Source: Bacillota bacterium
GTDB lineage: Bacteria; Bacillota; Sulfobacillia; Fermentithermobacillales; Fermentithermobacillaceae
Reading direction: 5' to 3'
Assembly (NCBI GenBank): GCA_012841065.1
Contig: DUVI01000002.1
Coordinates: 10,072-74,071, forward strand
Length of the DNA stretch: 64,000 nucleotides
Shown: positions 8,337 to 40,840 of the stretch, one piece after another
How the letters are laid out: each line of letters starts with the position of its first letter
How positions within the stretch are numbered: the stretch's first letter is position 1
Program-made: the position numbers and the translations under genes
The notes under the pieces: model-generated
What the model was told of the DNA's origin: nothing
Databases searched by the model: none
What the model saw: only the letters and a program-made list of their open reading frames with translations

Positions 8337-9443
8337 ATGAACAATTCGAGGCCTAGGTGCAGGGATCTTGGGATCTCTATCGGAACGCTCCCCACAGGAC
8401 CTTATAATGCGATTACCGATGTTCCCGGGGTTCTTGTAGGGCATTCGACGATCATAGAGGGTGAAGGGCCTCTTGTTCCAGGAAGAGGGCCGGTGAGAAC
8501 GGGCGTAACCGCTATCAGACCTCATCCTGGCAACTTGTTTCAAGAAAAGGTGCCGGGAGCCGTGTATGTGATAAACGGGTTCGGGAAAGCCACAGGCCTT
8601 GCCCAGGTTCAGGAGCTCGGGGTCATTGAAACCCCTGTTATCCTAACCAATACCCTGAGCGTAGGCCAGGCCTGGGATGCCCTCTGCGAGTACATGCTGG
8701 AACAAAATCCTGACATCGGCGTGACTACAGGTACCGTGAACCCCTTGGTGCTTGAATGCAACGACGGCTACCTGAATGACATCAGGGGCCGGCATGTAAG
8801 AAAGCATCATGTGTTGGCAGCGTTGAATGAGGCGTCATCGGGGCCTGTAACGGAAGGCAACGTAGGAGGCGGTACCGGGATGTCGTGCTTGGGTTTCAAG
8901 GGAGGCATAGGTACAGCTTCCAGGTGTGTAGAAGTTGGTGAAAACCAATGGTCTGTAGGCGTATTGGTGATGTCCAATTTCGGTAGCATGAAAGAACTCA
9001 GGATATCAGGGATCCCGGTCGGGCTGGAACTGGAGAAACGTTTAGGGAGGCAACATAAGACTCCCCCTGGTTCCATAGTTATTGTACTGGGAACAGATGC
9101 GCCCGTTTCACACAGGCAGCTTAACAGGATCGCCAAGAGGTGCCAGGGGGGACTGGCGCGTGTAGGCTCCACTTTCCAAAACGGAAGCGGCGATTTCGTC
9201 GTGGCGTTTTCTACGGCTAACCGTGTGCGCCATAAAGATTCGTCTGCTTTTGTAGAAGGCAAATGGCTGAGGGATGACTCCCGTGACTTGGGCCGGATTT
9301 TTGCGGCTGCTGTTGAAGCCACTGAAGAAGCGATCCTTAATTCACTGTCGGCTGCAGACACTATGGAAGGGCGGGACGGCAACACCAGAATGGGCCTGCC
9401 TGTTAGCATGGTGCTTGATATTCTTGGAACCTGGAAAGCCTAA
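8337..9443 (+). CDS. DmpA/P1-family (S58) aminopeptidase
   Basis: GPYNAITDVPGVLVGHSTI...RTGVTAI...VGGGTGMSCLGFKGGIGTASR is typical of DmpA-like self-processing Ntn peptidases. Confidence 0.8.
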   Translation: MNNSRPRCRDLGISIGTLPTGPYNAITDVPGVLVGHSTIIEGEGPLVPGRGPVRTGVTAIRPHPGNLFQEKVPGAVYVINGFGKATGLAQVQELGVIETPVILTNTLSVGQAWDALCEYMLEQNPDIGVTTGTVNPLVLECNDGYLNDIRGRHVRKHHVLAALNEASSGPVTEGNVGGGTGMSCLGFKGGIGTASRCVEVGENQWSVGVLVMSNFGSMKELRISGIPVGLELEKRLGRQHKTPPGSIVIVLGTDAPVSHRQLNRIAKRCQGGLARVGSTFQNGSGDFVVAFSTANRVRHKDSSAFVEGKWLRDDSRDLGRIFAAAVEATEEAILNSLSAADTMEGRDGNTRMGLPVSMVLDILGTWKA

Positions 9444-9530: not shown

Positions 9531-10193
9531 ATGCCGCGCAAGAACAACGATAGCCAAGCGGAGCAGAGCCGGCCGGGTGAGACCGGAAGACCCGCTTATC
9601 TTAGGGGGTTGAGGCCCCGGGAAAAGCCCCCGGGTGAGATCAAGGAGGTTGCTCCCGTTGAGGAGGAACAAGAACCTAAGGAAGACGTGGAACTGTATAG
9701 GTGGACAAATTGGCTTCTTCCTAGGCGCCCCCTTGTTGCCGTTCTTGTCATCGGTTCGCTCATAGGATGCATAGCTCTTGCATATTGGGCGGTACCCCAA
9801 CCGTTTTTTGTCGCGGTTATCACCGTGATATTCCTTAATCGCCTGGCTCCGTATCTCTTTCCCGTAACATTTGTCCTTACTGAGGAAACAGCGGGCTACA
9901 AGACGTTTCTGGCGCGCGATATCCGCAATTGGGATGTGTTCTTGGCCTACAGGGAATTTCCTGACGGTGTGTTCCTTACACACGATATACGGACTCTTAG
10001 AGGGCGTCTGAAGGAGGGGATTTTTCTCTACTATTACGAAGATTGTTCCAACAAAGATGAAATCCTTCGCATAGTCGGCTCTAAGTTGAAGCCTCTCGAT
10101 GAAGCACTGTCCACCGAACCCGATAAGAAGGAAAACAAGGGCGGACTGCGTTCAGCTTTCGAGCGGATTCGCAGGTTGCGCTCCAAGAAGTAA
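9531..10193 (+). CDS. Hypothetical membrane protein (charged N-terminus, 2 predicted TM helices, cytosolic C-domain, basic tail)
   Basis: Strong SD (GGGAGG, 7-nt spacing). Hydrophobic stretches LVAVLVIGSLIGCIALAYWAV and FFVAVITVIFLNRLAPYLF. No family recognised. Confidence 0.6.
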   Translation: MPRKNNDSQAEQSRPGETGRPAYLRGLRPREKPPGEIKEVAPVEEEQEPKEDVELYRWTNWLLPRRPLVAVLVIGSLIGCIALAYWAVPQPFFVAVITVIFLNRLAPYLFPVTFVLTEETAGYKTFLARDIRNWDVFLAYREFPDGVFLTHDIRTLRGRLKEGIFLYYYEDCSNKDEILRIVGSKLKPLDEALSTEPDKKENKGGLRSAFERIRRLRSKK

Positions 10194-10289
10194 TGAAGTA
10201 ATCAGGACTACTCATCCTCCAGCATAGCCTATGAGAGCTTTTTTCTTCATTCTTTGATTAGCGACAGGGAGAGCAAGGAGGGATCTGGT

Positions 10290-12185
10290 ATGGAAGAGAG
10301 AAGAGTTGAGTCTATTTTGGCCACAGACGTTGGCTCTACTACCACTAAAGCTGTTCTCATTGAGAAGATCGGGGATGAGTACAGGCTGGTCACCCGCGGA
10401 GAAATGCCCACCACAGTAGAAGCCCCATGGGAAAACGTGATGATCGGCGTGAAGAAAGCCGTAAAGCGGGTAGAGGAACTCATAGACAGGCCGCTTCTTG
10501 ATGAGGATGGTAACCTGATTAGGCCAAAGCAAGGCGAAAAGGGAGTCGACATGTACGTTTCTACATCCTCAGCCGGAGGCGGGCTCCAAATGATGGTGGC
10601 CGGCCTGGTGAAGTCGATTAGCGCCAGTTCAGCTCACAGGGCAGCGTTGGGAGCCGGGGCGGTAGTACTTGATGTCATATCAGTGGACGACGGACGATCT
10701 CAATCAGAGCAAATCACCAGAATCACCGAGTTACGCCCTGACATAATCCTGGTGTCAGGCGGCGTCGATGGGGGTTCTGTGGCATATCTGGCGTTAATTG
10801 CGGAGATTATCAAACAGGCTAACCCTCAGCCACGTTTTGGTGCCACGTATAAACTGCCCCTTATTTATGCGGGTAACAAAGACGCCCAGGATATTGTGAT
10901 GCAAATCTGCGGAGACACAATGGACGTGCATCTGGTCCCTAACCTCAGGCCGCGTCACGACATTGAGAACCTCGGGCCCTCAAGGGAAGCCATACACGAT
11001 CTCTTCATGAACCACGTCATGGCTCAAGCTCCCGGATATGGCGAACTCATGGAATTGGTAGATACAACTATTATGCCCACACCCGGTGCTGTCGGAAAAC
11101 TGATTATGGTTCTGGGCGAACAGAATAATCAGAGCATTATCGGTGTGGATATTGGCGGAGCAACCACTGACGTGTTTTCTAACTTCGAGGATACCTTCAC
11201 GAGGACGGTGTCTGCGAACCTGGGGATGAGCTATTCGATATGCAATGTGCTTGAAGAGGCAGGTTTCGACAATATTCTACGCTGGGTGCCTTTCGGCATG
11301 GACCAGTCACAGATTTCAGACTGGATTGCCAACAAGATGGTCAGGCCTACCACTATACCTCAGACTGTTTACCACCTTGTAGTTGAGCACGCGCTTGCCA
11401 GGGAAGCTCTGCGGCTCAGCTTCGAGCACCACAAGAGCCTCGCGAAAAAAGTCGAGGAAGAAAAAGTCGGATTTGGCCGTGAGAGCGGAGTTGCCAAAGC
11501 CTCGGGACGCGACATTATCAACATGATGGAGCTTGACATGCTGGTGGGTTCAGGCGGCGTACTGTCACATGCCCCCAGGCGGCACCAGGCTGCACTCATG
11601 CTCATAGATGCTTTCCAGCCTGAAGGGATCACCCAGCTGGCCGTAGACTCTATTTTCATGATGCCCCACCTGGGAGTGCTTTCATCTGTGTATCCGGACA
11701 TTGCTGCTGAAGTATTTGATAAAGACTGTCTGGTGAGGCTGGGCACAGTCGTCGCGCCTGTCGGCCAGGCACCCAGAAATGGCGTCTGGGCGACAATTCA
11801 CATCACCATGCCCAATGGGGAGATTGTGGAGCGTCAAATCACAAGCGGCGATATCCAGGTTATCCCTTTAGATGTAGGCGAGACTGCATCATGCAAGATT
11901 CAGCCTAACGGCGCGCGTATAGATGTGGGTGCAGGCAGAGGCAAGGCTTTTGAAACCGAACTCCACGGCGGGCTTGTGGGGATTGTCTTGGATGGCAGGG
12001 GCCGTCCAATAGAGATACCCGAAAGCGGGGCTGAACGAATCAAGCGATTGACCTCGTGGTTTGAAGCGATGAACGCTTATCCGATGGAGCCCATTTACGA
12101 ACTCCAGGAGCGGTATCCCATCAAAGAGGAAGACACAAAGGGAGGGAAGAAACGTGGCGGTCTCTTCGGTTTATTCAGGAGATAG
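10290..12185 (+). CDS. ASKHA-fold ATPase, long GlmL/MutL-like, copy 1
   Basis: ATDVGSTTTKAVL (phosphate-1), GVDIGGATTDVFS (phosphate-2), GSGGVLSHAP (adenosine). AAGGAGGGA lies 6 nt before the ATG at 10290, whereas the ORF track starts at 10254. The C-terminal tail reads KKRGGLFGLFRR. Confidence 0.8.
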   Translation: MEERRVESILATDVGSTTTKAVLIEKIGDEYRLVTRGEMPTTVEAPWENVMIGVKKAVKRVEELIDRPLLDEDGNLIRPKQGEKGVDMYVSTSSAGGGLQMMVAGLVKSISASSAHRAALGAGAVVLDVISVDDGRSQSEQITRITELRPDIILVSGGVDGGSVAYLALIAEIIKQANPQPRFGATYKLPLIYAGNKDAQDIVMQICGDTMDVHLVPNLRPRHDIENLGPSREAIHDLFMNHVMAQAPGYGELMELVDTTIMPTPGAVGKLIMVLGEQNNQSIIGVDIGGATTDVFSNFEDTFTRTVSANLGMSYSICNVLEEAGFDNILRWVPFGMDQSQISDWIANKMVRPTTIPQTVYHLVVEHALAREALRLSFEHHKSLAKKVEEEKVGFGRESGVAKASGRDIINMMELDMLVGSGGVLSHAPRRHQAALMLIDAFQPEGITQLAVDSIFMMPHLGVLSSVYPDIAAEVFDKDCLVRLGTVVAPVGQAPRNGVWATIHITMPNGEIVERQITSGDIQVIPLDVGETASCKIQPNGARIDVGAGRGKAFETELHGGLVGIVLDGRGRPIEIPESGAERIKRLTSWFEAMNAYPMEPIYELQERYPIKEEDTKGGKKRGGLFGLFRR

Positions 12186-13512
12186 TCAAACCGGCCGGAT
12201 AGAACTTATCAGAAAAGCAAGGCGGCTGCCTCTGCCAGGGGAGGTCCTTGTTAAGCAGGGAGATCAGATGTTGCCTGACACGCCTGTTGCTAAGATAGCT
12301 TTAAGGCCCGGTATTCCCTGGGTCATTCCGGCTGCCAGGTTGCTCGGTATAGAGCCTTCGGAACTGGGAAAAAGCATGCTGAAACAGGTGGGTGAGCGGG
12401 TCAAGACCCAGGATGTTATTGCCAGGGCTGAACAAGGGCTGTATGGCCGGAAGGAAATCACCTCACCTACAGACGGTGTAATCGAAGACGTATCTGACCG
12501 TTCCGGAAGGATTACCATCCGCGAGGAATTTGGTAAGGAAGAGCCGCCAATAACCTTCGATGTGGCCTTTGAGATCGGTTGCAGGCCTGAAGAACTTCCC
12601 CAGCACATGCTAAGGCAGGTAGGCCAGGAGATCAAGAAGGGCCAGATGATCGCTAAGAAGGGCGAAGCTCAGGCGTTTTTCACCAAGACTGCCTTGGCTC
12701 CTGTATCCGGCATTATATCTAAGATTTGTACCGAGACGGGCAAAGTCACAATTGCCAGGCCGTTCAAAGAGGTTGTGGTAACTGCGTATGTGCAGGGAAC
12801 TGTCTCTGAGATTATTGAGAATCGCGGGTGTGTAGTTGACACTGTGGGAATCCGGCTCAACGGGGTATTCGGGCTGGGAAGAGAGACCCACGGCGAACTC
12901 AAAATGCTCTGCAACAGCCCGGATCAAGTGCTCGAGGCAGACATGATCACCGAAGACTGCAAAGACAAGATTATCGTCGGCGGGTCTTTTGCTACCAACG
13001 AAGCTCTTTCCCGGGCGCTTGATGTTGGAGTAAGGGGAGTGATTACAGGCACGGTCAACTACTTCAACCTGACCCAGTCCCTTGGAGTCAAACTTGGCGT
13101 GGGTATAACGGGCCAGGAGGATATTGACATAACCGTAATACTTATGGAGGGGTTCGGCCACCTGTCCATGCGCAAGGAAGCATGGGAGACACTGGCTTCC
13201 TTGGAGGGAAGGATGGCTTCGATCAACGGTGCAACCCAAATCCGGGCCGGAGCGATAAGGCCTGAGATTATCGTGCCTTTCACGGACTATAAAGGCGAGC
13301 TGGCTAAACCTGCTGTGTTTGATCCTGACTTGCGGGTAGGAATGGATGTGAGGATCATCAACGAACCCTATTTCGGGGCCACCGGGAAAATCTGCGAGAT
13401 CGTCAGGGAACCTGTGGCAATCGAGACTGAAGCCAGAGTACCCGTTGTCCGGGTTGAACTTTTGGATGCGGCTCAAGTGGTGGTTCCCAGGGCTAACGTC
13501 GAGCTGTTGTAA
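12154..13512 (+). CDS. Uncharacterised barrel-sandwich-hybrid repeat protein with KOW/SH3-like C-terminus, copy 1
   Basis: GTG start with GGGAGGG 7 nt upstream, overlapping the upstream gene by 32 nt. Repeated G-x-V-x-x-G-x-x-I...SP.DG.I motifs, and a C-terminus DVRIINEPYFGATGKICEI...VVPRANVELL. Paralogous to 16004-17125. Confidence 0.75.
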   Translation: MAVSSVYSGDSQTGRIELIRKARRLPLPGEVLVKQGDQMLPDTPVAKIALRPGIPWVIPAARLLGIEPSELGKSMLKQVGERVKTQDVIARAEQGLYGRKEITSPTDGVIEDVSDRSGRITIREEFGKEEPPITFDVAFEIGCRPEELPQHMLRQVGQEIKKGQMIAKKGEAQAFFTKTALAPVSGIISKICTETGKVTIARPFKEVVVTAYVQGTVSEIIENRGCVVDTVGIRLNGVFGLGRETHGELKMLCNSPDQVLEADMITEDCKDKIIVGGSFATNEALSRALDVGVRGVITGTVNYFNLTQSLGVKLGVGITGQEDIDITVILMEGFGHLSMRKEAWETLASLEGRMASINGATQIRAGAIRPEIIVPFTDYKGELAKPAVFDPDLRVGMDVRIINEPYFGATGKICEIVREPVAIETEARVPVVRVELLDAAQVVVPRANVELL

Positions 13513-13638
13513 CCTGAGCGAGCAGCTGTGGATGCCTGGCTAAAGCTGCTCGTTGTCTGCTGTGGAATTATTAGGTTGCAATGTGTTGGCTGGAATATTG
13601 TAAAATAGACACAACGCTATCCGCTGGGAGGTGAATAG

Positions 13639-14034
13639 ATGCTTAATTTCCGCGAACCAATTGATGAGAAGCGACGAGAAGAGCTGTTGGACGCGATGGC
13701 TAACAAAATCAACCAATTCGGGATGACGGTTCCTGCGATTTTCTTCTTGGAGATGAACAAGCCCTTCAGTTATATAGGTGGACAGCTCATGCATTTTTTC
13801 TCTCCGATGATCGGAGTGTTTTTCGAGACCTTTGAAGATTATGCATACTTCTTTGATGATAGGAAAAACGTAGAACTTCTGATTCAGCGGCTTGAAGCTC
13901 TTGCTATGGAAGAAGAGGAAGAAAGACGCAAGCAGAAAGAGATGAAGAAAGCAGCAAAGCAGAAGAAAGCAGAAACATCAATGCTGGATGAAGCGCTTAA
14001 GATGGGACCGCAAGATACGAAGGATGAAAAATGA
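13639..14034 (+). CDS. Small hypothetical protein (hydrophobic core, Glu/Lys-rich C-terminus)
   Basis: GGGAGGTGA SD 5 nt before the ATG. Hydrophobic segment MTVPAIFFLEMNKPFSYIGGQLMHFFSPMIGVFF followed by EEEEERRKQKEMKKAAKQKK. No family recognised. Confidence 0.6.
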   Translation: MLNFREPIDEKRREELLDAMANKINQFGMTVPAIFFLEMNKPFSYIGGQLMHFFSPMIGVFFETFEDYAYFFDDRKNVELLIQRLEALAMEEEEERRKQKEMKKAAKQKKAETSMLDEALKMGPQDTKDEK

Positions 14035-14129
14035 TACTGGTATAAGAGGATTTTTTGCGGTGGATGTCGTAATTGACCCAAGTAGTCTTATTGTGTCTTG
14101 ATGGTGCCAGTGAGGGAGGGGAAGACTTA

Positions 14130-15986
14130 GTGCAGGAGCAGAAAAATGCGTTTCATCTGGACAGAGAGATAGACTCTGTGTTGGCTACTGACTGTGGTTC
14201 CACAACGACCAAAGCTATCCTTATTGAAAAGATCGACGATGAATATCGCCTGGTCGTGCGAGGAGAAGCTCCGACAACTGTTGAGGCACCTTTTGAGGAC
14301 GTTACAATGGGTGCAAGGAATGCTATCAGAGAAATTGAGGAACTTACCGGTAGGCGATTTCTCAACGATCAGGGTGTAATCACACCAAGGCAAGCTGACG
14401 GTTCAGGGGCAGATATCTACATGTCAACCTCATCTGCAGGTGGAGGCCTCCAGATGATGGTGGCAGGTGTGGTTAAGACAATGACCGCCGAATCTGCCGC
14501 ACGAGCTGCTCTGGGAGCCGGGGCTATCGTAATGGACGTGATTTCAGTAGATGACGGCCGGAAACCCCACGAGAAGATCCAGCGGATTAGGCAGCTCAGG
14601 CCGGACATGATTCTGCTTTCCGGCGGAATTGACGGGGGAACGATCACCCACGTAGCAGAAATCGGCGAGCTCATATCCGCCGCTGATCCCAAACCGAGGT
14701 TGGGTATAGGGTACAAACTGCCGATCATTTACGCCGGCAACAAGATGGCACGCAAGCACATCAACGATATCCTCGGTGAGAAGACCGACCTTAGAATCGT
14801 GGATAACCTGCGGCCTGTACTTGAAGCCGAAGTGCTCGGGCCGGCCAGGGAAGAGATCCACAACCTCTTCATGGAGCACGTTATGGCTCAAGCGCCGGGT
14901 TACAACAAACTTATGCAGTGGACTCCCGTACCGATTATGCCCACCCCAGGGGCAGTTGGCGCTTGTATGCAGACTGCTGCAAAGGAATACGACATGAGCG
15001 TCATAGGGGTTGACATCGGAGGCGCTACCACTGACGTATTTTCAGTGTTCGGCGAGTTCTTTAACAGGACTGTGTCAGCTAACCTTGGTATGAGCTATTC
15101 CATCTGTAACGTGCTTCTCGAAGCAGGCGTTGCGAATATCGAGAGATGGATTCCGTTTACCATCGAAGAAGGGGCTCTCAGGAACAGGATCCGGAACAAG
15201 ATGATTCGTCCCACCACTATTCCTCAGACCCTTGACGAGCTAATCATCGAACAAGCTATTGCAAGGGAAGCTTTGCGCCTTGCTTTTGAACACCATAAGA
15301 GCTTGGCAGTAGGGCTTAGGGGTGTACACAGGCAAAGGACCATTGGAGATACCTTTGAACAAACCGGAAGTGACGAGACATACATCGACATGGCTGAACT
15401 TGGCATGCTCATCGATTCAGGCGGATGTCTGTCCCACGCACCCAGGCGGGCACAAGCTGCCATGATGCTCATTGACGCTTTCCAGCCGGAATCCACAACC
15501 ATGCTGGCGGTTGACTCAATCTTCATGATGCCGCAGCTGGGTATTTTGGCATCTATCCATCCGAAAGCTTCAATGCAGGTGTTTGACAGGGACTGCCTGG
15601 TCAAACTCGGGATGGCAATTGCTCCTAAAGGGCCCAACGGTAAGGTTGAGTTCGGCAGCCCCTGTCTGGAAGTAACCCTTGAGGTTGACGGTCAGACCCT
15701 CGAGGAATCAGTGCCCTTCGGTTCCATGAAGGTGATTCGGCTCTCCGAAGACAAGACTGCAGAAGCTGTGATTCGCCCAACCAGGCACTTTGATGTGGGC
15801 AAAGGATACGGCCATGAACTCAAAACCACCGTCAACGGCGGAGTGGTCGGAGTGATCATAGATTGCAGAGGCCGCCCGGTTGTACTGCCTGAAGATCTGA
15901 AAGCACGCAACGAGAAACTGGTGGAATGGTTCCTTGCGATGAACATGTATCCTAAGGAATCACTCGGGCAATACGTTGAGGTTTAA
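14130..15986 (+). CDS. ASKHA-fold ATPase, long GlmL/MutL-like, copy 2
   Basis: ATDCGSTTTKAIL, GVDIGGATTDVFS and DSGGCLSHAP. Colinear with copy 1. GTG at 14130 is preceded by GAGGGAGGGG with 8-nt spacing, whereas the ORF track starts at 14073. Confidence 0.8.
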   Translation: MQEQKNAFHLDREIDSVLATDCGSTTTKAILIEKIDDEYRLVVRGEAPTTVEAPFEDVTMGARNAIREIEELTGRRFLNDQGVITPRQADGSGADIYMSTSSAGGGLQMMVAGVVKTMTAESAARAALGAGAIVMDVISVDDGRKPHEKIQRIRQLRPDMILLSGGIDGGTITHVAEIGELISAADPKPRLGIGYKLPIIYAGNKMARKHINDILGEKTDLRIVDNLRPVLEAEVLGPAREEIHNLFMEHVMAQAPGYNKLMQWTPVPIMPTPGAVGACMQTAAKEYDMSVIGVDIGGATTDVFSVFGEFFNRTVSANLGMSYSICNVLLEAGVANIERWIPFTIEEGALRNRIRNKMIRPTTIPQTLDELIIEQAIAREALRLAFEHHKSLAVGLRGVHRQRTIGDTFEQTGSDETYIDMAELGMLIDSGGCLSHAPRRAQAAMMLIDAFQPESTTMLAVDSIFMMPQLGILASIHPKASMQVFDRDCLVKLGMAIAPKGPNGKVEFGSPCLEVTLEVDGQTLEESVPFGSMKVIRLSEDKTAEAVIRPTRHFDVGKGYGHELKTTVNGGVVGVIIDCRGRPVVLPEDLKARNEKLVEWFLAMNMYPKESLGQYVEV

Positions 15987-16003
15987 GAGGAGGGAAGGTA
16001 TAA

Positions 16004-17125
16004 ATGGCACACGCATATACACCTGGACTCAAGGTTACTGAGAGAGCGGTGATCACCAAGACACGCCGCCTTCCTATCCTCGGCGAAGTGCTGGTTGAGA
16101 AAGGACAGGCGGTTTCGCCGGACACTATTGTGGCGAGAACCAATATTCCCGGTAACCCGCAGACCGTTAACGTGGCAAACATTTTAGGCGTCGATCCTGA
16201 TGACATTGCCGATTTGATGAAGAAGAAGGAAGGCGATTTTGTCAAGGAGGGCGAGATTCTGGCCGAGTACAAATCGTTCTTCGGGCTTATCAAGCACGAT
16301 GTAGAATCGCCCACTGACGGGACCATTGAGATGATCTCTACAATTACAGGGCAGGTCACTTTGCGTGAACCACCGGTCCCCATTGAGATAGATGCCTATA
16401 TAGACGGTGTGGTCGAGGAAATCCTCCCCAAGGAAGGGGTTATCGTAAAGACAGAAGGCGCCTTTATTCAGGGTATTTTTGGCGTCGGAGGAGAAGCTCA
16501 GGGCATTATCAGGGTTGCTGTAGAAGGCCCCAATGATGTGCTGGATGCTGCTGCCATCAAACCTGATGACAAGGGCAAGATACTTGTGGGCGGTTCCTTG
16601 GTGACCGCCGAGGCGATTAAGAAGGCCGGCGAAGTAGGCGCCACGGGAATTGTGGCCGGGGGAATAATCGACACCGAATTAATCGAGTACCTGGGCTTTG
16701 ACATTGGCGTAGCAATTACAGGCCATGAAGATATTCCTGTAACTGTGATCATCACTGAAGGCTTTGGAAAGATGAGAATGGCAGACCGCACTTTCGGCCT
16801 GCTGAAGAGACTGGATGGCTTCAAGGCTTCAATCAACGGTGCAACCCAGATCCGCGCAGGAGTCATGCGTCCTGAGATCATCGTGCCCGGTTATGAGGCT
16901 GAGTCCACTGATGAGGGCCTGGACCTCACTGCAGGGCTTGTACCAGGCACACCCATCAGGATCATCAGGGAGCCTTACTTCGGCATGCTGGCTGAGATAG
17001 TCGAATTGCCGCCGGATCTTGAGGTCATCGAATCTGAGGCCAAGGTGAGAATCCTAAGGGCCAAACTGGAAGACGGCACAATTGTCACCGTGCCCAGGGC
17101 AAATGTGGAGATAATCGAAAGCTAA
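16004..17125 (+). CDS. Uncharacterised barrel-sandwich-hybrid repeat protein with KOW/SH3-like C-terminus, copy 2
   Basis: Paralogue of 12154-13512 (RRLPILGEVLVEKGQ..., INGATQIRAGVMRPEIIVP, PIRIIREPYFGMLAEIVE...VPRANVEII) but about 80 aa shorter. An SD lies upstream. Confidence 0.75.
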   Translation: MAHAYTPGLKVTERAVITKTRRLPILGEVLVEKGQAVSPDTIVARTNIPGNPQTVNVANILGVDPDDIADLMKKKEGDFVKEGEILAEYKSFFGLIKHDVESPTDGTIEMISTITGQVTLREPPVPIEIDAYIDGVVEEILPKEGVIVKTEGAFIQGIFGVGGEAQGIIRVAVEGPNDVLDAAAIKPDDKGKILVGGSLVTAEAIKKAGEVGATGIVAGGIIDTELIEYLGFDIGVAITGHEDIPVTVIITEGFGKMRMADRTFGLLKRLDGFKASINGATQIRAGVMRPEIIVPGYEAESTDEGLDLTAGLVPGTPIRIIREPYFGMLAEIVELPPDLEVIESEAKVRILRAKLEDGTIVTVPRANVEIIES

Positions 17126-17151
17126 GAACCAGGCTGTCAGTGTAGACTTAG

Positions 17152-17181
17152 AAGGAGAGGGTTTCCTCTCCTTTTGTTTTT
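17152..17181 (+). terminator. Rho-independent terminator closing the duplicated module
   Basis: Stem AAGGAGAGG, loop gttt, stem CCTCTCCTT, followed by TTGTTTTT. Confidence 0.8.
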
Positions 17182-17330
17182 GGCACACAATGGCAATACT
17201 GAGTTATGTGGATGTTATCCCACATGTGTTTTGGTATGAGATAAAGGGATAACATGTCTGGGCGCAGAACAGAGTTAAGCGTGTGATGCTTGAAGAATGC
17301 GGAGAAAGGAGGAACTAGACTCAAGAGGCC

Positions 17331-18275
17331 ATGGACCAACAGATGTATCGTGAATTCATGGATGAACACGTGATCCCCCTCAAGGCCAGGCTGGATGATT
17401 TCTTGCCTGTGGTCTTGGGCTTGCGTAAGGCTGCGCAGATTGTGATGCCTGCCGAACTGCCTGACGCCGGCATCCTAGGTGCTACCATCGACGATAGCTT
17501 TCGGCAGAAAATGGCCGGCAAGAGGCTTCCCGGCGAGTCGCTGACGGATTACCTTAAGAACAGGACCGCCCGCATGCGGAGCAAAAACAAGGCACAGGAT
17601 CTACGTTTCCGGTTGCAGATGCTCAGGGATATCTACAGAGATGTTGTTGAGAAATCCAGATCGTACCAGGTATATATGAACTGGATAGACAAATGGGGAT
17701 TGCACCGGAAGGAACTGGAAGCCCGTCCTACTATACGGGAGATATACATCTTCGAAGATGAGGACATTGCCGTCCAGCTTGAAGAACTTCAAGATCTCCG
17801 GAAAGACATAAGGTACAACTTCGCCAAGAACCCCGATCCCTCGTTGAGCGGCTCACTCAGGGTGTTCCCTGAAGAGCATAATTCTGCGTTCTTGCGCAAA
17901 GCCGGAGGCATACTTGGATTTCCCGATTGCTGCATAGAACGGTATGTGTTTGACAGGAATTCAGGGGTTTTGAGCCCGGAAGTAAGGGCTTCAAACCAGA
18001 TAGCCCATTCAGATAGTCCTGATGATGTGGACACCTATGCGTATTTCACCAAAGACTTCTTCCCCTGCCAACCCGATTGCCCCGAAGCTGCAAAGATAGG
18101 CAGGGCAATCCATAAAGCGCTCTGCGAGGTAGATCCTGACCTTGCCAAGAGCTATGAGGAACATGTGGCAGGCAACATGAGATTGGTCAAGCAGTATCCT
18201 GATATCATACAGAACAGGCTGGCGAGATTGCAGCAGGAAGCCAGGCAACAAGAGGTTGAGCCGGGTGAAGAGTAG
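17331..18275 (+). CDS. Hypothetical protein with GFPDCC...FFPCQPDC four-Cys motif
   Basis: 314-aa ORF, first gene after the terminator, overlapping udg by 20 nt. The Cys motif suggests a metal site. No family confidently recognised. Confidence 0.6.
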   Translation: MDQQMYREFMDEHVIPLKARLDDFLPVVLGLRKAAQIVMPAELPDAGILGATIDDSFRQKMAGKRLPGESLTDYLKNRTARMRSKNKAQDLRFRLQMLRDIYRDVVEKSRSYQVYMNWIDKWGLHRKELEARPTIREIYIFEDEDIAVQLEELQDLRKDIRYNFAKNPDPSLSGSLRVFPEEHNSAFLRKAGGILGFPDCCIERYVFDRNSGVLSPEVRASNQIAHSDSPDDVDTYAYFTKDFFPCQPDCPEAAKIGRAIHKALCEVDPDLAKSYEEHVAGNMRLVKQYPDIIQNRLARLQQEARQQEVEPGEE

Positions 18276-21970: not shown

Positions 21971-23002
21971 ATGCTCATACTTGGGATTGATACATCTTGC
22001 GATGATACTTCGTGTGCTGTTGTCAAAGACGGGCGGCAGGTCTTGTCAAATATTGTTTCTTCCCAGACAAACCTTCATGAGAAGTTTGGAGGGGTTGTAC
22101 CTGAAATAGCTTCCAGAAGGCACTTGGAGATGCTCATTCCGGTGTGTGGCGAAGCTCTTGAACAGGCAGGTGTGACCCTCAAGGATATTGACGGGATTGC
22201 CGTTACCAATGGGCCGGGGCTCTTGGGCTCGCTATTGGTCGGGGTTGGTTTTGCCAAGGCCCTGGCTTATGCGACCAAGGTGCCGCTTATTGACGTTCAC
22301 CATATTGCAGGACACATCTATGCCAACTTCCTTGGCGAAACGTTGCCTGAATTCCCAGTGCTTAACCTGGTGGTGTCGGGAGGGCATTCTGAGCTAATCC
22401 TCATGGAATCCCACGGGCGGTTCACCCTTTTGGCTGAGACCAGGGATGATGCCGCAGGTGAAGTGTTTGACAAAGTCGCCAGGGAAATGGGACTGGGCTT
22501 TCCCGGAGGCCCTTACCTGGATCGTTTAGCTGAATCAGGTGATCCGGATAAGATTGCCTTCCCCTTGCCCAAAATCCGCGGCTCCAAGTACGATTACAGT
22601 TTTTCAGGAATTAAGACCCGGGCTTTGCTGGAATTCGAATCGGCAGACAAGACCGAAGAGTCAAAGCGTGACCTGGCGGCCGGTTTCAGAAAGGGCGTGG
22701 TGGATCAGCTCTTGAACCCGGTGGAAGAGTTGATCAGGCAAACAGGCGCCAGGACCCTTGCGCTTTCAGGCGGTGTTGCAGCTAACGCGTTGCTCCGGCG
22801 GGAAAGCCAAGCGCTGGCTGACAGGCTGAACATCCCACTATTCGTCCCTTCAAGGGAATTGTGCACTGACAATGGCGCCATGATTGCTTCGGCCGGCTAT
22901 TATAAGTACAGGGAGGCCGGTAGCAGCCGGCTTGAATCTGAAGGCTTACTGATGGAATGCTCAGCGGGCCTTGAGCTTCGGTCGTGGGGAGTGGATATGT
23001 GA
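21971..23002 (+). CDS. tsaD: tRNA N6-adenosine threonylcarbamoyltransferase
   Basis: MLILGIDTSCDDTSCAVV...HIAGHIYAN...VVSGGHSEL...LSGGVAAN. Confidence 0.95.
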   Translation: MLILGIDTSCDDTSCAVVKDGRQVLSNIVSSQTNLHEKFGGVVPEIASRRHLEMLIPVCGEALEQAGVTLKDIDGIAVTNGPGLLGSLLVGVGFAKALAYATKVPLIDVHHIAGHIYANFLGETLPEFPVLNLVVSGGHSELILMESHGRFTLLAETRDDAAGEVFDKVAREMGLGFPGGPYLDRLAESGDPDKIAFPLPKIRGSKYDYSFSGIKTRALLEFESADKTEESKRDLAAGFRKGVVDQLLNPVEELIRQTGARTLALSGGVAANALLRRESQALADRLNIPLFVPSRELCTDNGAMIASAGYYKYREAGSSRLESEGLLMECSAGLELRSWGVDM

Positions 23003-24339
23003 TGTTGCTTGAGCGTACACCGCCCCCATCCATGGAAGCCATGTTGTACCACGCCCAGATGCAAGGGATTTTGCCCCTTACGTCCCGCTGCAACATGCAG
23101 TGTGTCTTTTGCTCCAATGCTTACAACCCTGAGACCTGCGAGGTGTTTACCATACCACCCAGGTCCCTGGCTGAAATCGAAGATACTATATTGTGGCTCA
23201 CAGGCTCCAGGGGGCCTATTGTTATCGGTGAATCGGTTACCAGGATCAATGAAGGTGAACCGCTTACACATCCTGAGTTTCCGGACATCCTTAAGCTATT
23301 GCGTAAGCACTACCCTGACAGAATCATCAGAGTTACAACCAACGGTTCATTACTTACCCCTGAACTTATCAAGAGGCTTTCAGAGTTTGACGTTGAGCTG
23401 ATGGTATCTCTGAACACCGTGGGTTACAGGGAACAGGTTATGGGCGACAAGCAGCCTGAGACAACCTTGCGCAATGTAGAAGCTCTTGGCGGCAAAGTGA
23501 GGTTTGAGGGAAGCATAATTGCATTGCCGTTTATAACCGGATGGGAGGATATTAGGGATACCGCCAGGTTCTTGAGGGATTCGGGGGCATGGTCAATACG
23601 GATCTTGGCGCCGGGATTTTCCCGGTACCACCCGCTTAGCGAGTACGCGGCTTCATTCGACTTGGATGAAGCAAGAGGGGCCGGCCAGGAACTCCAGAAA
23701 GATCTCAAGATCCCTGTGTTGTTCGAACCTCCCGGAATCACATCGGTAACCCCGGTTGTCGAGTATGTGCTGCCAAGGTCGCCGGCCAGGCGGGCGGGAC
23801 TAAGGTCCGGAGACGTGATTACTCAGGTGCTCAAGCGGTATGTGATGTCGCGGACGGAAGCTTTTGAGCTGATAAGGGATCATGAAAAGCCGCGGGTAGT
23901 TTGTGACAGGCAGGGCGTGCTCTATGAAACTGTGATCAACAAGCACAGGTTCCAGCCGTCCGGGCTGGTGATGTATGACGACCTGGACCCTGATGCATGG
24001 TTTAAGTGGGAACTTGAATCCAGGGTGAAACGCAGGCGGGTGCTTGTGCTTACCTCAGGACCGGCAAAACCGGTTATCGAAGACGCGCTGGAAGTACGCG
24101 GGCTAAACGCGAAGGTTGAAGCGGTGCCTTCTGTGTTCTTCGGAGGCAATATCGATGCTGCCGGCCTTCTCACCGTGAGAGACTTTATCGCCAAGTACAG
24201 TGAGATCACCGGTGGAGGTTATGAACCTGAGATCGTAACCCTGCCTAAGAGAGCCTTTGATCCTTGGGGCAGGGATCTTGAAGGGGTCAGCTACAGAAGT
24301 TTTGAGCAGATGTCGGGAAAACCTGTTGTACTTGCTTGA
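23002..24339 (+). CDS. Radical SAM protein with PDZ-like domain (DUF512-type)
   Basis: CNMQCVFC (CxxxCxxC) and a PDZ-like segment LPRSPARRAGLRSGDVITQV. The ATG overlaps the tsaD stop (TGATG). GTG starts at 22984 and 22999 are alternatives. Confidence 0.75.
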   Translation: MLLERTPPPSMEAMLYHAQMQGILPLTSRCNMQCVFCSNAYNPETCEVFTIPPRSLAEIEDTILWLTGSRGPIVIGESVTRINEGEPLTHPEFPDILKLLRKHYPDRIIRVTTNGSLLTPELIKRLSEFDVELMVSLNTVGYREQVMGDKQPETTLRNVEALGGKVRFEGSIIALPFITGWEDIRDTARFLRDSGAWSIRILAPGFSRYHPLSEYAASFDLDEARGAGQELQKDLKIPVLFEPPGITSVTPVVEYVLPRSPARRAGLRSGDVITQVLKRYVMSRTEAFELIRDHEKPRVVCDRQGVLYETVINKHRFQPSGLVMYDDLDPDAWFKWELESRVKRRRVLVLTSGPAKPVIEDALEVRGLNAKVEAVPSVFFGGNIDAAGLLTVRDFIAKYSEITGGGYEPEIVTLPKRAFDPWGRDLEGVSYRSFEQMSGKPVVLA

Positions 24340-24409: not shown

Positions 24410-25471
24410 TTGGACTTAAGAGAGTTTCTCAAGAAAGCCTCGCTGGCCCATGGGGTGTCGGGGTTTGAGTTCATGGACATTGCATCATTGGCAAAGGATG
24501 CAATGGAGGGCTTGGTGGATGAAATCCACGTGGATGTGCTCGGCAATGTAATAGGAGTGAAGCATGGTCAAGGTCCCCAGCCCAGGCCGAAGATCATGCT
24601 TGCAGGCCATATGGACGAAATCGGCCTGATTGTCACCAAGATTGAGGAAGGCGGCTTCCTGAGGTTTGCCCCTGTAGGCGGGGTAGACCAGCGGGTCTTG
24701 CCTGCCCATGAAGTGATAGTGTACGGCAAGAGGCCGCTCACAGCCGTAATCGGGGTGAAACCTCCCCACCTTACTTCGCCTGAAGAGGCCAAGAATGCTC
24801 ACAAGATGAAAGACTTATTCATCGATACCGGATTGCCTGAGGAAGAAGTCCGCAACCTGGTTCGTGTGGGCGACGTTGTAACCTTCAAGCGACAGGTGAG
24901 CGAGCTAATGGGCGACAGGTTGTCAGGCAAAGCTCTCGACGACAGGGCAGGGGTTGCGGTTATTCTGGCTTGCCTCGATGAGTTGCGCAAGTACAAAGTG
25001 GACGCAGATGTGTATGCTGTAGCTACCAGCCAGGAGGAAGTAAGCTTAGGCGGCGCCGTTGTTTCAGCTTACGGCATCCAGCCTGACATCGGCATAGCTA
25101 TCGACGTGTGCCATGGTGAAACTCCTGGGGTCCCTGAGTGGAGAACCTCATCTGTGGGGAAGGGGCCTGCCCTGGCCCAAGGTGCCAACATTCATCCTAA
25201 GGTATTTGCCGCGCTTGAAAAGGCAGCTAAAGAAACAGGCGTCAACGTACAGAAGGAGATCGCTCCTGCAGCCACAGGGACCGATGCATGGGCCATGCAA
25301 GTTACCAGGGCAGGAGTAGCAACCGGCCTGGTTTCCATTCCTTTGCGCTATATGCACACATCGGTTGAGACCCTCTCAATGAGTGACATAGAGGGCGCAG
25401 GCAGGCTATTGGCCAGGTTTATTGCGTCTTGTGATGCAGGTTTTGTGAAGGAGTTGAAGACATGGATCTGA
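24410..25471 (+). CDS. M42 family (TET/FrvX-type) aminopeptidase, paralogue 1
   Basis: SGFE...VDVLGNVIG...MLAGHMDEIGLIVTKIEEGGFLRF..GG...KALDDRAGV...ATSQEEVSLGGA...IPLRYMHT. Confidence 0.88.
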   Translation: MDLREFLKKASLAHGVSGFEFMDIASLAKDAMEGLVDEIHVDVLGNVIGVKHGQGPQPRPKIMLAGHMDEIGLIVTKIEEGGFLRFAPVGGVDQRVLPAHEVIVYGKRPLTAVIGVKPPHLTSPEEAKNAHKMKDLFIDTGLPEEEVRNLVRVGDVVTFKRQVSELMGDRLSGKALDDRAGVAVILACLDELRKYKVDADVYAVATSQEEVSLGGAVVSAYGIQPDIGIAIDVCHGETPGVPEWRTSSVGKGPALAQGANIHPKVFAALEKAAKETGVNVQKEIAPAATGTDAWAMQVTRAGVATGLVSIPLRYMHTSVETLSMSDIEGAGRLLARFIASCDAGFVKELKTWI

Positions 25472-26481
25472 GAACTCTTACAACCCTTTCAGGGGTTTCG
25501 GGAAACGAATATGAAGTCCGGTCCGCGATAATCGAACAACTCCAGTCCATGGGGATTTCATACGAATGCGACGTAATGGGCAACGTGATCGCCAAGAAGG
25601 GCAGCCGGGGTCCGAAAGTGCTGCTCGATGCCCATATGGACGAAGTGGGGCTTGTAATAACCCACATCGAGAAGAACGGGTTTCTCAGATTTGCCCGTGT
25701 GGGGGGAATAGACCCGCGGGTATTGGTTTCCAAGCGTGTGCTTGTAGGCAAGGAAAAGCTTCCCGGTGTGATAGGAGCGAAAGCTATCCACCTTCAAGAA
25801 CGTGATGAACGGTCCCGGGTAATCCCCATAGACCAGCTGTTTATCGATATTGGCGCAGAGTCCCTGGAACAGGCCAAAAGCAAAGTACAACCGGGGGACT
25901 ACGTGGCATTCGACACCGAGTACGAAGAACTTGCCCCAGGGATCATCAAAGCTAAGGCGTTGGATGACAGGGTTGGGTGTGCGCTCCTGTTTGAAGTGCT
26001 GAAACAGGACTGGCAGGACATACAACTCTATGCCGTGTTCGCAGTCCAGGAAGAAATAGGGCTCAGGGGAGCAAAGGTTGCCGCATTTGCAGTTGAACCT
26101 GACATGGGCATAGCTCTTGAGGGCACGGTTTGCGCTGACATACCTGGAACTGACAAGGAATTTCAGGCAACCCGGTTGGGCAAGGGGGCTGCCATCAGCA
26201 TAATGGACAGAGGCTCTATACCCAACCGTGCAATGCTCGACCAGCTTGTGAAGATTGCTGAGAACGAGGCGATACCTTACCAGTTCAGAGAAGCTACTTC
26301 CGGGGGTAACGACGCGGGCGCTATACAGCAAGCTAAAGCAGGTTGTCCTGTAGCATCGGTATCTGTGCCTTGCCGCTGTATACATACCCCTTGTTCGATC
26401 ATGTCAATGTCAGATTTTGACGCAGCCCGGAAATTGGTCATCAAGTTCTTAGAGAGTGTTGAGGGAGGTTTCAGACCGTGA
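25462..26481 (+). CDS. M42 family aminopeptidase, paralogue 2
   Basis: SGNE...LDAHMDEVGLVITHIEKNGFLRF...KALDDRVGC...FAVQEEIGLRGA...VPCRCIHT. Overlaps paralogue 1 by 10 nt. Confidence 0.88.
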   Translation: MDLRTLTTLSGVSGNEYEVRSAIIEQLQSMGISYECDVMGNVIAKKGSRGPKVLLDAHMDEVGLVITHIEKNGFLRFARVGGIDPRVLVSKRVLVGKEKLPGVIGAKAIHLQERDERSRVIPIDQLFIDIGAESLEQAKSKVQPGDYVAFDTEYEELAPGIIKAKALDDRVGCALLFEVLKQDWQDIQLYAVFAVQEEIGLRGAKVAAFAVEPDMGIALEGTVCADIPGTDKEFQATRLGKGAAISIMDRGSIPNRAMLDQLVKIAENEAIPYQFREATSGGNDAGAIQQAKAGCPVASVSVPCRCIHTPCSIMSMSDFDAARKLVIKFLESVEGGFRP

Positions 26482-27473
26482 AAGACCTTATCAAGAGACT
26501 GACAGAAGCTTTTGGGCCTTCAGGTTCCGAGGGGCCTGTAAGGGAAGTTATCAGGAAAGAGGTCGAGCCCTACGTTGACGAGATCAGGGTGGATGCTATG
26601 GGCAACCTCATTTGCCTCAAGAAAGGGAGCGGCGGAGGCAAAAAGGTAATCCTTGATGCTCATATGGATGAAATCGGCGTTATAGTGACCCATATAGACG
26701 ACAACGGTTTTCTGCGGTTTGCCAATATCGGGGGAGTATCCCCTATGGTTGCCCTTGGACAGCGGGTATATTTCGAAAACGGCACTTTCGGTGTGATCGG
26801 ATGCGAAAAGCTGGATGACATCAAAGATCTTAGACTCGAAAAGCTTTATATGGATATTGGCGCCACCAGCCGGGAAGAAGCTTCCAAGAAGGTTAAGGTA
26901 GGCGATATGGCCGCTTTCTTCCAGCCTGCTATTGACATGGGCAACCGCATTGTAGCCAAAGCCATGGATGACAGGATTGGTTGCGTGGTGGTAATTGAAG
27001 CTTTGAAGCGGATAAAGCAATCTGAACATGATATCTACGCGGTGTTTGCAACCCAGGAAGAGGTCGGGCTGAGAGGGGCCAGGGTAGCCGCTTACGGGAT
27101 CAATCCGGATGTGGGCATAGCTTTTGACGTTACCGGCACAGGAGATACCCCGAAAGCTCACACTATGGAGGTTTCCCTTGGCAAAGGGGCTGCCATAAAG
27201 GTCAAAGATTCCAGCTTGATATGCCATCCCGGGCTCAGGGACTACCTTGTGAAACTGGCCGAGGAGAAGGGTATCCCTTATCAGATGGAAGTATTGCAAC
27301 GCGGAGGCACAGACTCCGGCGCCATCCAGCTCACCCGGGCAGGCGTGCCGGCCGGGGTGATTTCAATCCCGTCCAGGTATATCCACAGTCCCTGTGAGAT
27401 GGTGGATCTGGGAGACGTAGAAGCTTGCGTCAACCTGTGCGTGGCTGCATGTGAGAGTCCGCTGGATTTCTGA
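26478..27473 (+). CDS. M42 family aminopeptidase, paralogue 3
   Basis: SGSE...LDAHMDEIGVIVTHIDDNGFLRF...KAMDDRIGC...FATQEEVGLRGA...IPSRYIHS. The GTG start overlaps the paralogue 2 stop. Confidence 0.88.
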   Translation: MKDLIKRLTEAFGPSGSEGPVREVIRKEVEPYVDEIRVDAMGNLICLKKGSGGGKKVILDAHMDEIGVIVTHIDDNGFLRFANIGGVSPMVALGQRVYFENGTFGVIGCEKLDDIKDLRLEKLYMDIGATSREEASKKVKVGDMAAFFQPAIDMGNRIVAKAMDDRIGCVVVIEALKRIKQSEHDIYAVFATQEEVGLRGARVAAYGINPDVGIAFDVTGTGDTPKAHTMEVSLGKGAAIKVKDSSLICHPGLRDYLVKLAEEKGIPYQMEVLQRGGTDSGAIQLTRAGVPAGVISIPSRYIHSPCEMVDLGDVEACVNLCVAACESPLDF

Positions 27474-37661: not shown

Positions 37662-37689
37662 GCCTGTCCGGAGATACGGAGGTATTAGC

Positions 37690-38664
37690 ATGGGAGATAG
37701 ATTACTGGTAACACCGTCACCTCATGTGAAGAGCACCAAGACTGTGCAGGGAATTATGCTTGACGTGGTAATAGCGCTTTGCCCCGCCGCAATAGCCGGA
37801 ACTGTGTTGTTCGGTTTCAGGTCGGCCTTAATTATCCTTGTTTCAGTGGCTTCGGCGGTGGCTTCAGAAGCTCTTTATCAAAAAGCAGTAAAACGACAAG
37901 TGAGCATCAATGACTTCTCAGCGGTGATCACAGGGTTGCTCTTGGCATTGACGCTGCCGCCGCATGTACCTCTGTGGATCCCGGCAATCGGGGCTGCGTT
38001 TGCGATTGTACTTGTAAAACAGGTTTTCGGCGGTTTGGGGAATAATTTCCTAAACCCGGCGCTTGCCGCCAGGGCGTTTCTGCTCGCCGCATGGCCTTTG
38101 CATATGACACAGGATTGGGTTAACCCCATGACTTATGATGCAGCTACTTCGGCGACGCCCCTGGCCGGGTTCAACGCCACCGGGCAGACTGCTTTCACGC
38201 TCAAACAAATGCTCCTTGGCCAGAGGCCGGGCTCGATTGGGGAAACTTGCATACTGGCATTGCTGCTGGGCGGCCTGTACCTGATTGTCAGGGATATAAT
38301 AGATTACAGGATTCCTTTGGGTTACCTGGGTACCCTGGCTATAGGCACATGGATTTTCGGAAAGCCCGGGGCGTTTTTCCAGGGGGACCCGCTGGGTGCC
38401 ATATTCCTGGGCGGCGCCTTTATCGGTGCGTTTTTCATGGCTACTGATTACGTGACCTCGCCTGTCACCCCACGGGGTAGGTTGTACATGGGGATAGGCT
38501 GCGGGCTAATCACTTTAGTGATTAGGCTTTGGGGCGGCTACCCTGAAGGGGTTACCTACGCGATCTTGTTCATGAATCTTGTTACGCCGCTGATTGATAA
38601 GTATGTGGTGCCGAGATATTACGGTTCTGGTCACGACAAAATGGCCCGTAAAGGCGGGAGGTGA
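37690..38664 (+). CDS. rnfD: Rnf complex subunit D
   Basis: A polytopic membrane protein with SPH at the N-terminus and a flavinylation-type motif DAATSATPLAG, in rnf context. Confidence 0.92.
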   Translation: MGDRLLVTPSPHVKSTKTVQGIMLDVVIALCPAAIAGTVLFGFRSALIILVSVASAVASEALYQKAVKRQVSINDFSAVITGLLLALTLPPHVPLWIPAIGAAFAIVLVKQVFGGLGNNFLNPALAARAFLLAAWPLHMTQDWVNPMTYDAATSATPLAGFNATGQTAFTLKQMLLGQRPGSIGETCILALLLGGLYLIVRDIIDYRIPLGYLGTLAIGTWIFGKPGAFFQGDPLGAIFLGGAFIGAFFMATDYVTSPVTPRGRLYMGIGCGLITLVIRLWGGYPEGVTYAILFMNLVTPLIDKYVVPRYYGSGHDKMARKGGR

Positions 38665-38670
38665 AACCAG

Positions 38671-39303: not shown

Positions 39304-39345
39304 TCTGATGTGGGTTGAGGCGACAGCCGGAAGGAGTGAATTTGC

Positions 39346-39933: not shown

Positions 39934-39946
39934 GGAGGGAGCATAG

Positions 39947-40771: not shown

Positions 40772-40840
40772 CGGGTCTTTTTGTCCTGGGCTCTGTTAAC
40801 CCGTCCGCTTCAGGCGGATTTGGTGCCTAGGAGGTAAGAC

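Follow-up and report, generated by a model that had tools for sequence, protein, structure and literature searches.

A tandemly duplicated operon pairs long-form GlmL/MutL-family ATPases with partner proteins of apparently new architecture

We analyzed a 64,000-nucleotide stretch of Bacillota DNA (the window; contig DUVI01000002.1 of assembly GCA_012841065.1) and found that positions 9531-17186 form a self-contained operon with two copies of a two-protein module and two small proteins, A and D. Each copy consists of an ATPase (B1 or B2) with the motifs of the ASKHA (actin/Hsp70/sugar-kinase) group, related to the glutamate-mutase accessory protein GlmL/MutL, and a partner protein (C1 or C2) that combines a barrel-sandwich hybrid (BSH) region, a Gly-rich alpha/beta domain, and a KOW-like barrel. 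It does not encode a glutamate-mutase accessory; its ATPases constitute a GlmL-family subfamily in which an added domain, the obligate partner, and the membrane accessories are all new. An earlier note, made from the letters of the DNA, had proposed the block as an uncharacterized duplicated module, a reading that our analysis supports, and its six open reading frames (ORFs), all in one orientation, are all recovered at the coordinates that it gave:

9531..10193, + strand: protein A, 220 residues, ORF with Shine-Dalgarno sequence
10290..12185, + strand: ATPase B1, 631 residues, PF13941 match with E=5e-121
12154..13512, + strand: partner C1, 452 residues, GTG start
13639..14034, + strand: protein D, 131 residues, ORF with Shine-Dalgarno sequence
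14130..15986, + strand: ATPase B2, 618 residues, GTG start, PF13941 match with E=1.5e-122
16004..17125, + strand: partner C2, 373 residues
17149..17186, + strand: intrinsic terminator (17149-17176) that ends the operon, with a 12-bp stem, a 4-nt loop, and then a T-run

A GGGAGG or GGAGGG Shine-Dalgarno sequence lies 6-10 nt 5' of all six starts (9531, 10290, 12154, 13639, 14130, and 16004), and because each start has one, these starts are favored over the upstream TTG codons at 10254 and 14073. The starts read earlier therefore stand, with the correction that the B2 start at 14130 is a GTG. The GTG start of C1 overlaps the end of B1 by 32 nt and the gap between B2 and C2 is 17 nt, both as previously described, and the ATPase and partner genes are translationally coupled. 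The strong terminator expected after the block is also present. No riboswitch or leader RNA was found 5' of the cassette in the window or in eight related loci, and no Rfam element was detected.

The two gene pairs are paralogous, as the earlier note had judged by eye. Pairwise protein comparison shows that B1 and B2 are 55% identical over 615 residues (E=0) and that C1 and C2 are 40% identical over 322 residues (E=1e-72), and a second C1/C2 alignment reveals an extra N-terminal barrel-sandwich unit in C1. The strength of these alignments is far beyond chance, and the tandem duplication is therefore real. B1-type orthologues occur in only eight loci, every one of which also has B2, and C1-type orthologues occur in ten; the B1/C1 pair is confined to loci like those of DTU015, the Bacillota class of the source organism, with B2/C2 always alongside. 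The B1 orthologues are 67-74% identical to B1 and 54-58% identical to B2. Because they are nearer to B1 than to B2, and because the pair is always accompanied by B2/C2, the duplication is old and maintained, B1 is the lineage-specific paralogue, and B2/C2 is the universal type. Two ATPase-partner pairs are also present in a Bathyarchaeota locus (L077, 8173-14352), where they are convergent (tail-to-tail) and both of the B2/C2 type; this duplication is independent of the one in Bacillota.

Both ATPases match the Pfam MutL family (PF13941, gathering score 27 bits), B1 with 405.1 bits (model positions 1-450 of 450, residues 9-480) and B2 with 410.1 bits (ATPase core residues 17-489), in agreement with the GlmL/MutL kinship suggested before. 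The ASKHA phosphate-1 (DxGSTTTK), phosphate-2 (DIGGATTD), and adenosine (SGG) motifs, which had been picked out from the translations, are invariant in 33 homologues (residues D21, G23-K28, D295-D302, and S430-G432). In the full-length Pfam match and in these motifs B1 and B2 resemble both GlmL/MutL (NF040745) and Or-4 (NF040744), and presumably they share with GlmL/MutL the same kind of ATP-driven conformational cycle. However, B1 and B2 score only 222.6 and 219.2 bits against the NCBIfam GlmL equivalog NF040745 (cut-off 475) and 220.6 and 199.6 bits against Or-4 (cut-off 600), which is less than half of these equivalog cut-offs, and they also fall below the cut-off of TIGR01319 glmL_fam (169 and 156.8 bits; cut-off 204). 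By Pfam the ATPases thus belong to the GlmL/MutL family, but they are neither GlmL nor Or-4 equivalogs. The canonical GlmL, a single-domain protein of ~460 residues, is considerably shorter, as the earlier note had remarked: B1 and B2 (618-631 residues) are ~160 residues longer, and their ~130-residue C-terminal extension falls outside the PF13941 model. In an AlphaFold2 model of B2 (predicted local distance difference test (pLDDT) 75.5 for the whole chain, and >90 in the C-terminal domain), this extension, which GlmL lacks, forms a beta-sandwich (490-580) followed by two helices (590-617). The sole match of a profile of the extension is a weak Mop/TOBE-like one (E=0.0056).

According to PMC4682846, GlmL/MutL is a chaperone for the reactivation of glutamate mutase, and GlmL appears only in this role in the literature that we searched. 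B1 and B2 might be genuine reactivases of a B12 mutase (for glutamate, ornithine, or lysine) whose gene lies at another place in the genome, a role in keeping with their Pfam MutL membership and with the source annotations "glutamate mutase L" and "methylaspartate mutase". We regard this explanation as highly improbable. Both ATPases are under the GlmL, Or-4, and TIGR01319 cut-offs, and our survey of the window, in which practically all of its long ORFs were scanned against Pfam, revealed no glmS, glmE, B12-binding, or Met_asp_mut_E domain. No GlmS-like match or B12-binding motif was found in ~2 Mb around 160 homologous loci either, with an approximate GlmS sequence as the probe. Whereas GlmL is encoded beside glmS/glmE, the long-form ATPase is never next to a B12-binding gene in the loci examined; what it is coupled to, at times as a fusion, is a dedicated non-B12 partner with BSH, alpha/beta, and KOW parts, and it is accompanied by small membrane-associated proteins and other conserved membrane accessories. 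The species that carry the pair, at least 576, moreover differ widely in lifestyle. The earlier statement that the window lacks mutase, B12-binding, and radical-enzyme genes is thus right for the first two, but one radical-SAM gene, fused to PDZ, is present at 22984-24339 (+), directly after tsaD; it lies ~6 kb downstream and is unlinked to the cassette. In public databases, homologues of B1 and B2 are automatically named "glutamate mutase L" or "methylaspartate mutase", systematically so in metagenome-assembled genomes. None of the homologues so named exceeds the cut-off for the GlmL equivalog or has a mutase in its vicinity, and these labels on long-form ATPases are likely misannotations.

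The partner protein was modeled in the form of C2 (pLDDT 86.7, predicted template-modeling score 0.78). The model shows a BSH domain (~20-130), a beta-hairpin region that bears an invariant QGxFGxGxE motif, an alpha/beta domain (190-295) with invariant TGxE, EGFG, and TQxRAGxxRPE motifs, and a KOW/SH3-like barrel (315-370). C1 consists of two BSH units, the Gly-rich alpha/beta domain, and a KOW-like barrel. The BSH and KOW assignments of the earlier note hold, but its description of BSH repeats fits C1, which has two units, and not C2, which has one clear unit only. The invariant charged or polar residues of the partner are E164, E242, E252, Q282, R284, R289, and E291. In Pfam, C1 matches RnfC_N (4.5e-8, residues 152-194) and, below the cut-off, Biotin_lipoyl (residues 73-118), and among 30 partner-family members RnfC_N is matched by 15 and NQRA_N by five. 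No invariant or near-invariant Lys lies in the region of the BSH hairpin, at whose tip PF00364 carriers have their modifiable lysine, in 30-38 homologues, and the BSH of the partner is predicted to be cofactor-less.

No relative covering the full length of the partner was found in Pfam, in the PDB, or by Foldseek. Foldseek searches of the PDB with C2 gave domain-level matches only, to the KOW domain of NusG/Spt5, domain II of Thermotoga maritima NusG, and RnfC, all with TM-scores <0.2, and a profile of the middle domain alone found no relative in Pfam or the PDB. T. maritima NusG (2xhc) is the only PDB chain that joins BSH-like and KOW elements as the partner does, and the partner barrel superposes on the Spt5/NusG KOW domain with a Foldseek probability of ~1.0 and a root-mean-square deviation of 1.3-1.5 Å over ~57 residues. 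However, the global TM-score to NusG is 0.15 and NusG has no middle alpha/beta domain; because neither Pfam nor Foldseek detects an NGN domain in the partner, it is not a member of the NusG/Spt5 family. One partner homologue is labeled "NusG" in public databases, which is likely a misannotation. The partner also resembles RnfC and NqrA in its N-terminal BSH and in the coarse order of BSH, alpha/beta, and small beta domain, but it lacks the Complex1_51K, SLBB, and Fe-S (Fer4) domains and has a KOW/SH3-like C-terminus. With the middle-domain profile, Cpl-7 CW_7 repeats (5i8l) matched at E=4e-6; this match is judged spurious because it arises from one short QG.(F/W)G.G.E motif that scores at three places of a helical repeat protein. 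Profile and structure searches therefore place the partner in no characterized family, as the first reading had suspected, and it appears to represent a new protein architecture with a novel Gly-rich alpha/beta domain.

The predicted fold of the ATPase is that of ASKHA proteins, nearest to the hydantoinase/acetone-carboxylase and Hsp70 branches. Foldseek searches of the PDB with the B2 model gave generic ASKHA folds only (TM-scores <=0.33); the best matches are the ATPase subunits of acetophenone carboxylase, N-methylhydantoinase, acetone carboxylase, and caprolactamase (5l9w, 5m45, 6yra, and 9h03; TM-scores of only 0.26-0.33), and Hsp70, Ppx/GppA, FtsA, MreB, and PilM were also matched. The ATPase sequence has no sequence match in the PDB. 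The hydantoinase and carboxylase systems likewise are pairs of an ATPase and a second subunit, and the module might be a two-component ATP-dependent enzyme of this kind (HyuA-HyuB or acetone/acetophenone carboxylase-like), in which the ASKHA protein would phosphorylate a small substrate and the partner, through a conserved Glu/Arg/Gln pocket in its alpha/beta domain, would perform the second chemical step. In addition to the best structural matches, B2 is barely over the gathering score of Hydantoinase_A (23.2 versus 22.9 bits) in the phosphate-2 region, the partner has the invariant Glu, Arg, and Gln residues listed above, a partner segment (VGGS..T..A....G..G.V.GG) is weakly similar to the phosphate-binding motifs of TIM-barrel enzymes, and peptidase or amino-acid catabolic genes are often nearby. 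Unlike hydantoinase A (PF01968 plus PF05378), however, the ATPases match Hydantoinase_A only locally, over 33-39 residues (39 at most; B1 19.9 bits), and Hydant_A_N is below the cut-off. The window encodes no HyuB-like (PF02538) partner, the architecture of the actual partner differs, and there is no conserved catabolic context, since no metabolic gene is a consistent neighbor across phyla. Nor would a soluble catabolic enzyme be expected to come with conserved small membrane-associated proteins or with the module of four membrane genes described below. We therefore consider an enzyme of this kind a rather unlikely explanation, although one to be taken seriously.

The matches to FtsA, MreB, and PilM (E~1e-4, TM-scores 0.2-0.3) denote a distant fold likeness to actin-like filament formers. 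A cytomotive ATPase with the partner as its adaptor and A and D as tethers, comparable to MreB-RodZ, FtsA-FtsN, or PilM-PilN, would be in keeping with this fold, with the small membrane-associated proteins encoded beside the ATPase, and with the position of the genes among core housekeeping genes. Against it, in sequence and in fold alike the actins are more remote from the ATPase than the hydantoinase/GlmL and Hsp70 branches, the MreB-like_C and PilM matches are far below the cut-off, and the genome already has MreB at 43622-44647. A filament system thus seems improbable.

At 50% identity the partner family falls into 2612 clusters (537 at E<=1e-30), and the count of at least 576 carrier species was obtained with one genome scanned per species. 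Bacterial carriers include Bacillota, WOR-3, Stahlbacteria, Eisenbacteria, Zixibacteria, Poribacteria, Latescibacterota, Cloacimonadota, Fermentibacteria, Planctomycetota, Synergistia, and Armatimonadota, and archaeal carriers include Bathyarchaeia and Culexarchaeia. In loci anchored on the partner, the ATPase gene is directly 5' in 39 of 67 informative cases and absent from 25, mostly in WOR-3, Stahlbacteria, and Poribacteria. The metagenome loci anchored on the ATPase are an independent sample, and in these the partner gene is directly 3' in 37 of 63, farther along in 10, and absent in 16. Direct adjacency thus holds in ~58% of loci. No conserved gene replaces the partner beside the ATPase in the loci without an adjacent partner. 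Two of the partner-family clusters are natural fusions, with the ATPase N-terminal to the partner (P0268, 995 residues; P0333, 1003 residues). The co-occurrence across genomes on which the earlier note had staked its proposal is hence present, although it is not universal, the genes being dispersed in WOR-3 and Poribacteria. An apparent triple fusion of ATPase, partner, and DUF6754 (L033) is an ORF-calling artefact on a high-GC contig, where translation gives separate genes.

Several further observations concern the neighbors of the pair. In a set of WOR-3/Stahlbacteria loci (L017, L022, L024, L025, L028, L035, L052, L059, L063, L066, L069, and L076), the partner gene is solitary (the 10 kb around it hold no ATPase gene), and the lone partner is followed by a ~280-residue protein (c6) that Pfam does not match and whose N-terminal part contains a hydrophobic segment; in several lone-partner loci the next ORF, of ~313 residues, is read as a putative accA. 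In many FCB-group genomes, ORFs directly 5' of (A)-D-ATPase are read, from ORF sizes and one example sequence, as putative gcvT, gcvH, gcvPA, and gcvPB (L020, L026, L037, L039, L041, L043, L051, L053, L054, L061, L079, L098, L143, L153, and L157). GcvH is a lipoyl BSH protein, and these gcv-like neighbors could reflect either lineage synteny or a functional hint. In Bathyarchaeia (L019, L030, L031, L032, and L046), an ORF of ~409 residues (cluster c20), which from its sequence we take to be LarA-like (DUF2088), lies 3' of the partner gene.

The small proteins are conserved companions of the pair. Protein A, which corresponds to the two-helix membrane protein noted before the block, has a charged N-terminal region, two adjacent transmembrane helices (~63-112) by Kyte-Doolittle analysis, a conserved motif after them, and a ~100-residue cytoplasmic C-terminal domain; it has no Pfam or NCBIfam match. 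Weak homologues (cluster c9) occur 5' of D-ATPase in other phyla, an A-like protein with two transmembrane helices is present in 24 of 80 ATPase-anchored metagenome loci, and protein A is a predicted accessory membrane anchor of the cassette. Protein D accompanies the ATPase more constantly than any other protein, its gene being directly 5' in 43 of 72 loci and elsewhere in the locus in seven more. It had been called a small hydrophobic/charged protein that splits the block, and its sequence consists of a conserved, moderately hydrophobic segment (PAIFFLE..KPLSFIG.Q...F.P), then EDR.N.E.LI..LE, and a Lys/Glu-rich tail, but the segment is not predicted to be a transmembrane helix. The D family has 322 stand-alone proteins of 116-182 residues without Pfam matches, all named "hypothetical", and a profile search of the PDB with protein D found nothing. 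One D homologue in public databases is labeled "MreC", which is likely a misannotation.

In many phyla, four membrane proteins are added to the cluster, a module seen in related loci only:

DUF6754: membrane module, PF20539
c2: membrane module, ~210 residues, ~6 transmembrane helices
c7: membrane module, ~280 residues, transmembrane helices at both ends
c4: membrane module, ~240 residues, ~6 transmembrane helices

The extended gene order is DUF6754-c2-c7-c4-(A)-D-ATPase-partner, or a permutation of it, and the membrane module is sometimes duplicated. The eight-gene cluster recurs in two permuted orders in Bathyarchaeia, Zixibacteria, Eisenbacteria, Fermentibacteria, Synergistia-like genomes, and some Bacillota-like genomes. 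A Pfam family exists only for the ATPase (PF13941) and DUF6754, and separate sequence clusters are formed by the partner, D, c2, and c4. Together with the conservation of A and D, this integral-membrane module strengthens the membrane association that the earlier note had suggested.

The eight proteins (ATPase, partner, A, D, DUF6754, c2, c7, and c4) may together constitute a new ASKHA-powered membrane machine of Bacteria and Archaea, either a transporter or a device for envelope or membrane-protein assembly, of which the duplicated soluble module in the window would be the cytoplasmic motor; we rate this idea as rather unlikely, although its chance is not negligible. A related explanation is that the ATPase energizes an undescribed membrane transporter or machine (DUF6754-c2-c7-c4) and that the partner is a peripheral adaptor like NqrA or RnfC. 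The recurrence of the eight genes across phyla in two orders, with the module sometimes duplicated, would fit such a system, as would the alignment of the partner's N-terminal BSH with RnfC_N and NqrA_N and with the window's own RnfC (hhalign probability 72% over ~130 N-terminal residues, to residue ~180). But the membrane module is present in just 14 of 48 ATPase-anchored loci with enough flank and is absent from the window, and c2 and c4 resemble neither RnfA/E nor one another. An Rnf/Nqr analogy was rejected, the likeness being limited to the BSH and c2 and c4 being unrelated to RnfA/E. We know of no ASKHA-powered transporter, and on balance an energized transporter with such an adaptor seems unlikely.

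The explanation that we tentatively favor, short of an even chance, is that the ATPase and its partner act as a complex tethered by D and A, in which the ASKHA cycle is passed on to the partner. The ATPase and partner would form a stable complex, D and A would hold it at the cytoplasmic face of the membrane, and in most other phyla it would be joined to the four-protein integral-membrane module that includes DUF6754. Binding and hydrolysis of ATP in the ASKHA cleft would drive an open/closed cycle, as in Hsp70 and in the GlmL, DdrA, and EutA chaperones/reactivases, and transmission of this cycle to the partner would allow a ligand or client, bound in a conserved partner pocket, to be loaded, released, or remodeled. 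Within DTU015 Bacillota, B1/C1 and B2/C2 probably work together as a hetero-oligomer. The 50 best Foldseek matches to the ATPase include no DdrA or EutA chain, and Pfam gives no such match. In favor of the proposed mechanism are the GlmL/MutL placement with its invariant ASKHA motifs, the predicted fold, the chaperone role ascribed to GlmL/MutL, the tight gene coupling and the fusions, the recurrent adjacency and wide species range, the conservation of A and D, the membrane module of other phyla, the lack of a consistent metabolic neighbor, B12-binding gene, riboswitch, or defense match, and the age of the duplication. Several results weigh against it: the ATPase and partner are not neighbors in ~25-37% of loci (WOR-3, Stahlbacteria, and Poribacteria), none of DUF6754, c2, c7, and c4 is encoded within the 64-kb window, no transmembrane helix is predicted in protein D at a Kyte-Doolittle threshold of 1.6, the AlphaFold2 model of the ATPase has low confidence in several invariant segments, and the invariant charged residues of the partner would fit an enzyme active site equally well.

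The source organism belongs to Candidatus Fermentithermobacillaceae (class DTU015, Bacillota), and the closest locus found is 93% identical. This family comprises uncultured thermophiles that ferment peptides and amino acids (PMC10215811). The window is rich in housekeeping genes, including cdaA, cdaR, glmM, nnr, UDG, tsaEBD, rimI, nifSU, sigma-54, rnfCDEAB, apbE, mreBCD, PBP2, minCD, rodA, helicases, ligA, gatAB, and murB. PADLOC returned no match for any of the seven proteins searched, and a defense system was rejected; with these core flanks, the view that the module is not mobile cargo is sustained. Peptidase genes are numerous nearby, with C69 (3068-4567), C26 (7613-8320), and S58 (8337-9443) peptidases and three tandem paralogous M42 glutamyl-aminopeptidase genes (24410-27473, +), which is consistent with a peptide-fermenting lifestyle. 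An Rnf operon at 36306-41884 (+) holds rnfC, rnfD, two Rnf-Nqr family subunits, and rnfB, then apbE, which encodes the flavin transferase; no rnfG was found in it, and a published account of the related Bu02 genome likewise lists rnfCDEAB. Just past the terminator, at 17331-18275 (+), lies a gene for a 314-residue protein (cluster c17) with no Pfam family and with Cys-rich motifs (GFPDCCIERY...FFPCQPDCPEA), whose position is conserved in DTU015-like Bacillota and whose 31%-identical relative in a Bathyarchaeota locus (L050) lies 7 kb downstream of the cassette.

Full-text literature searches returned nothing relevant on the ATPase-partner pairing, on PF13941, or on DUF6754, in accordance with the earlier remark that no function was known for the pairing. 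The ATPase and its partner are a well-defined, widely conserved, and currently misannotated pair, and the cluster to which they belong is conserved across domains, contains six uncharacterized families, and appears to have been described by nobody. Should the pair prove to be a chaperone-like switch that acts on a non-B12 client, or to be what drives a membrane machine, it would widen the functional range of the GlmL branch of ASKHA proteins, and the partner would define a new protein architecture.

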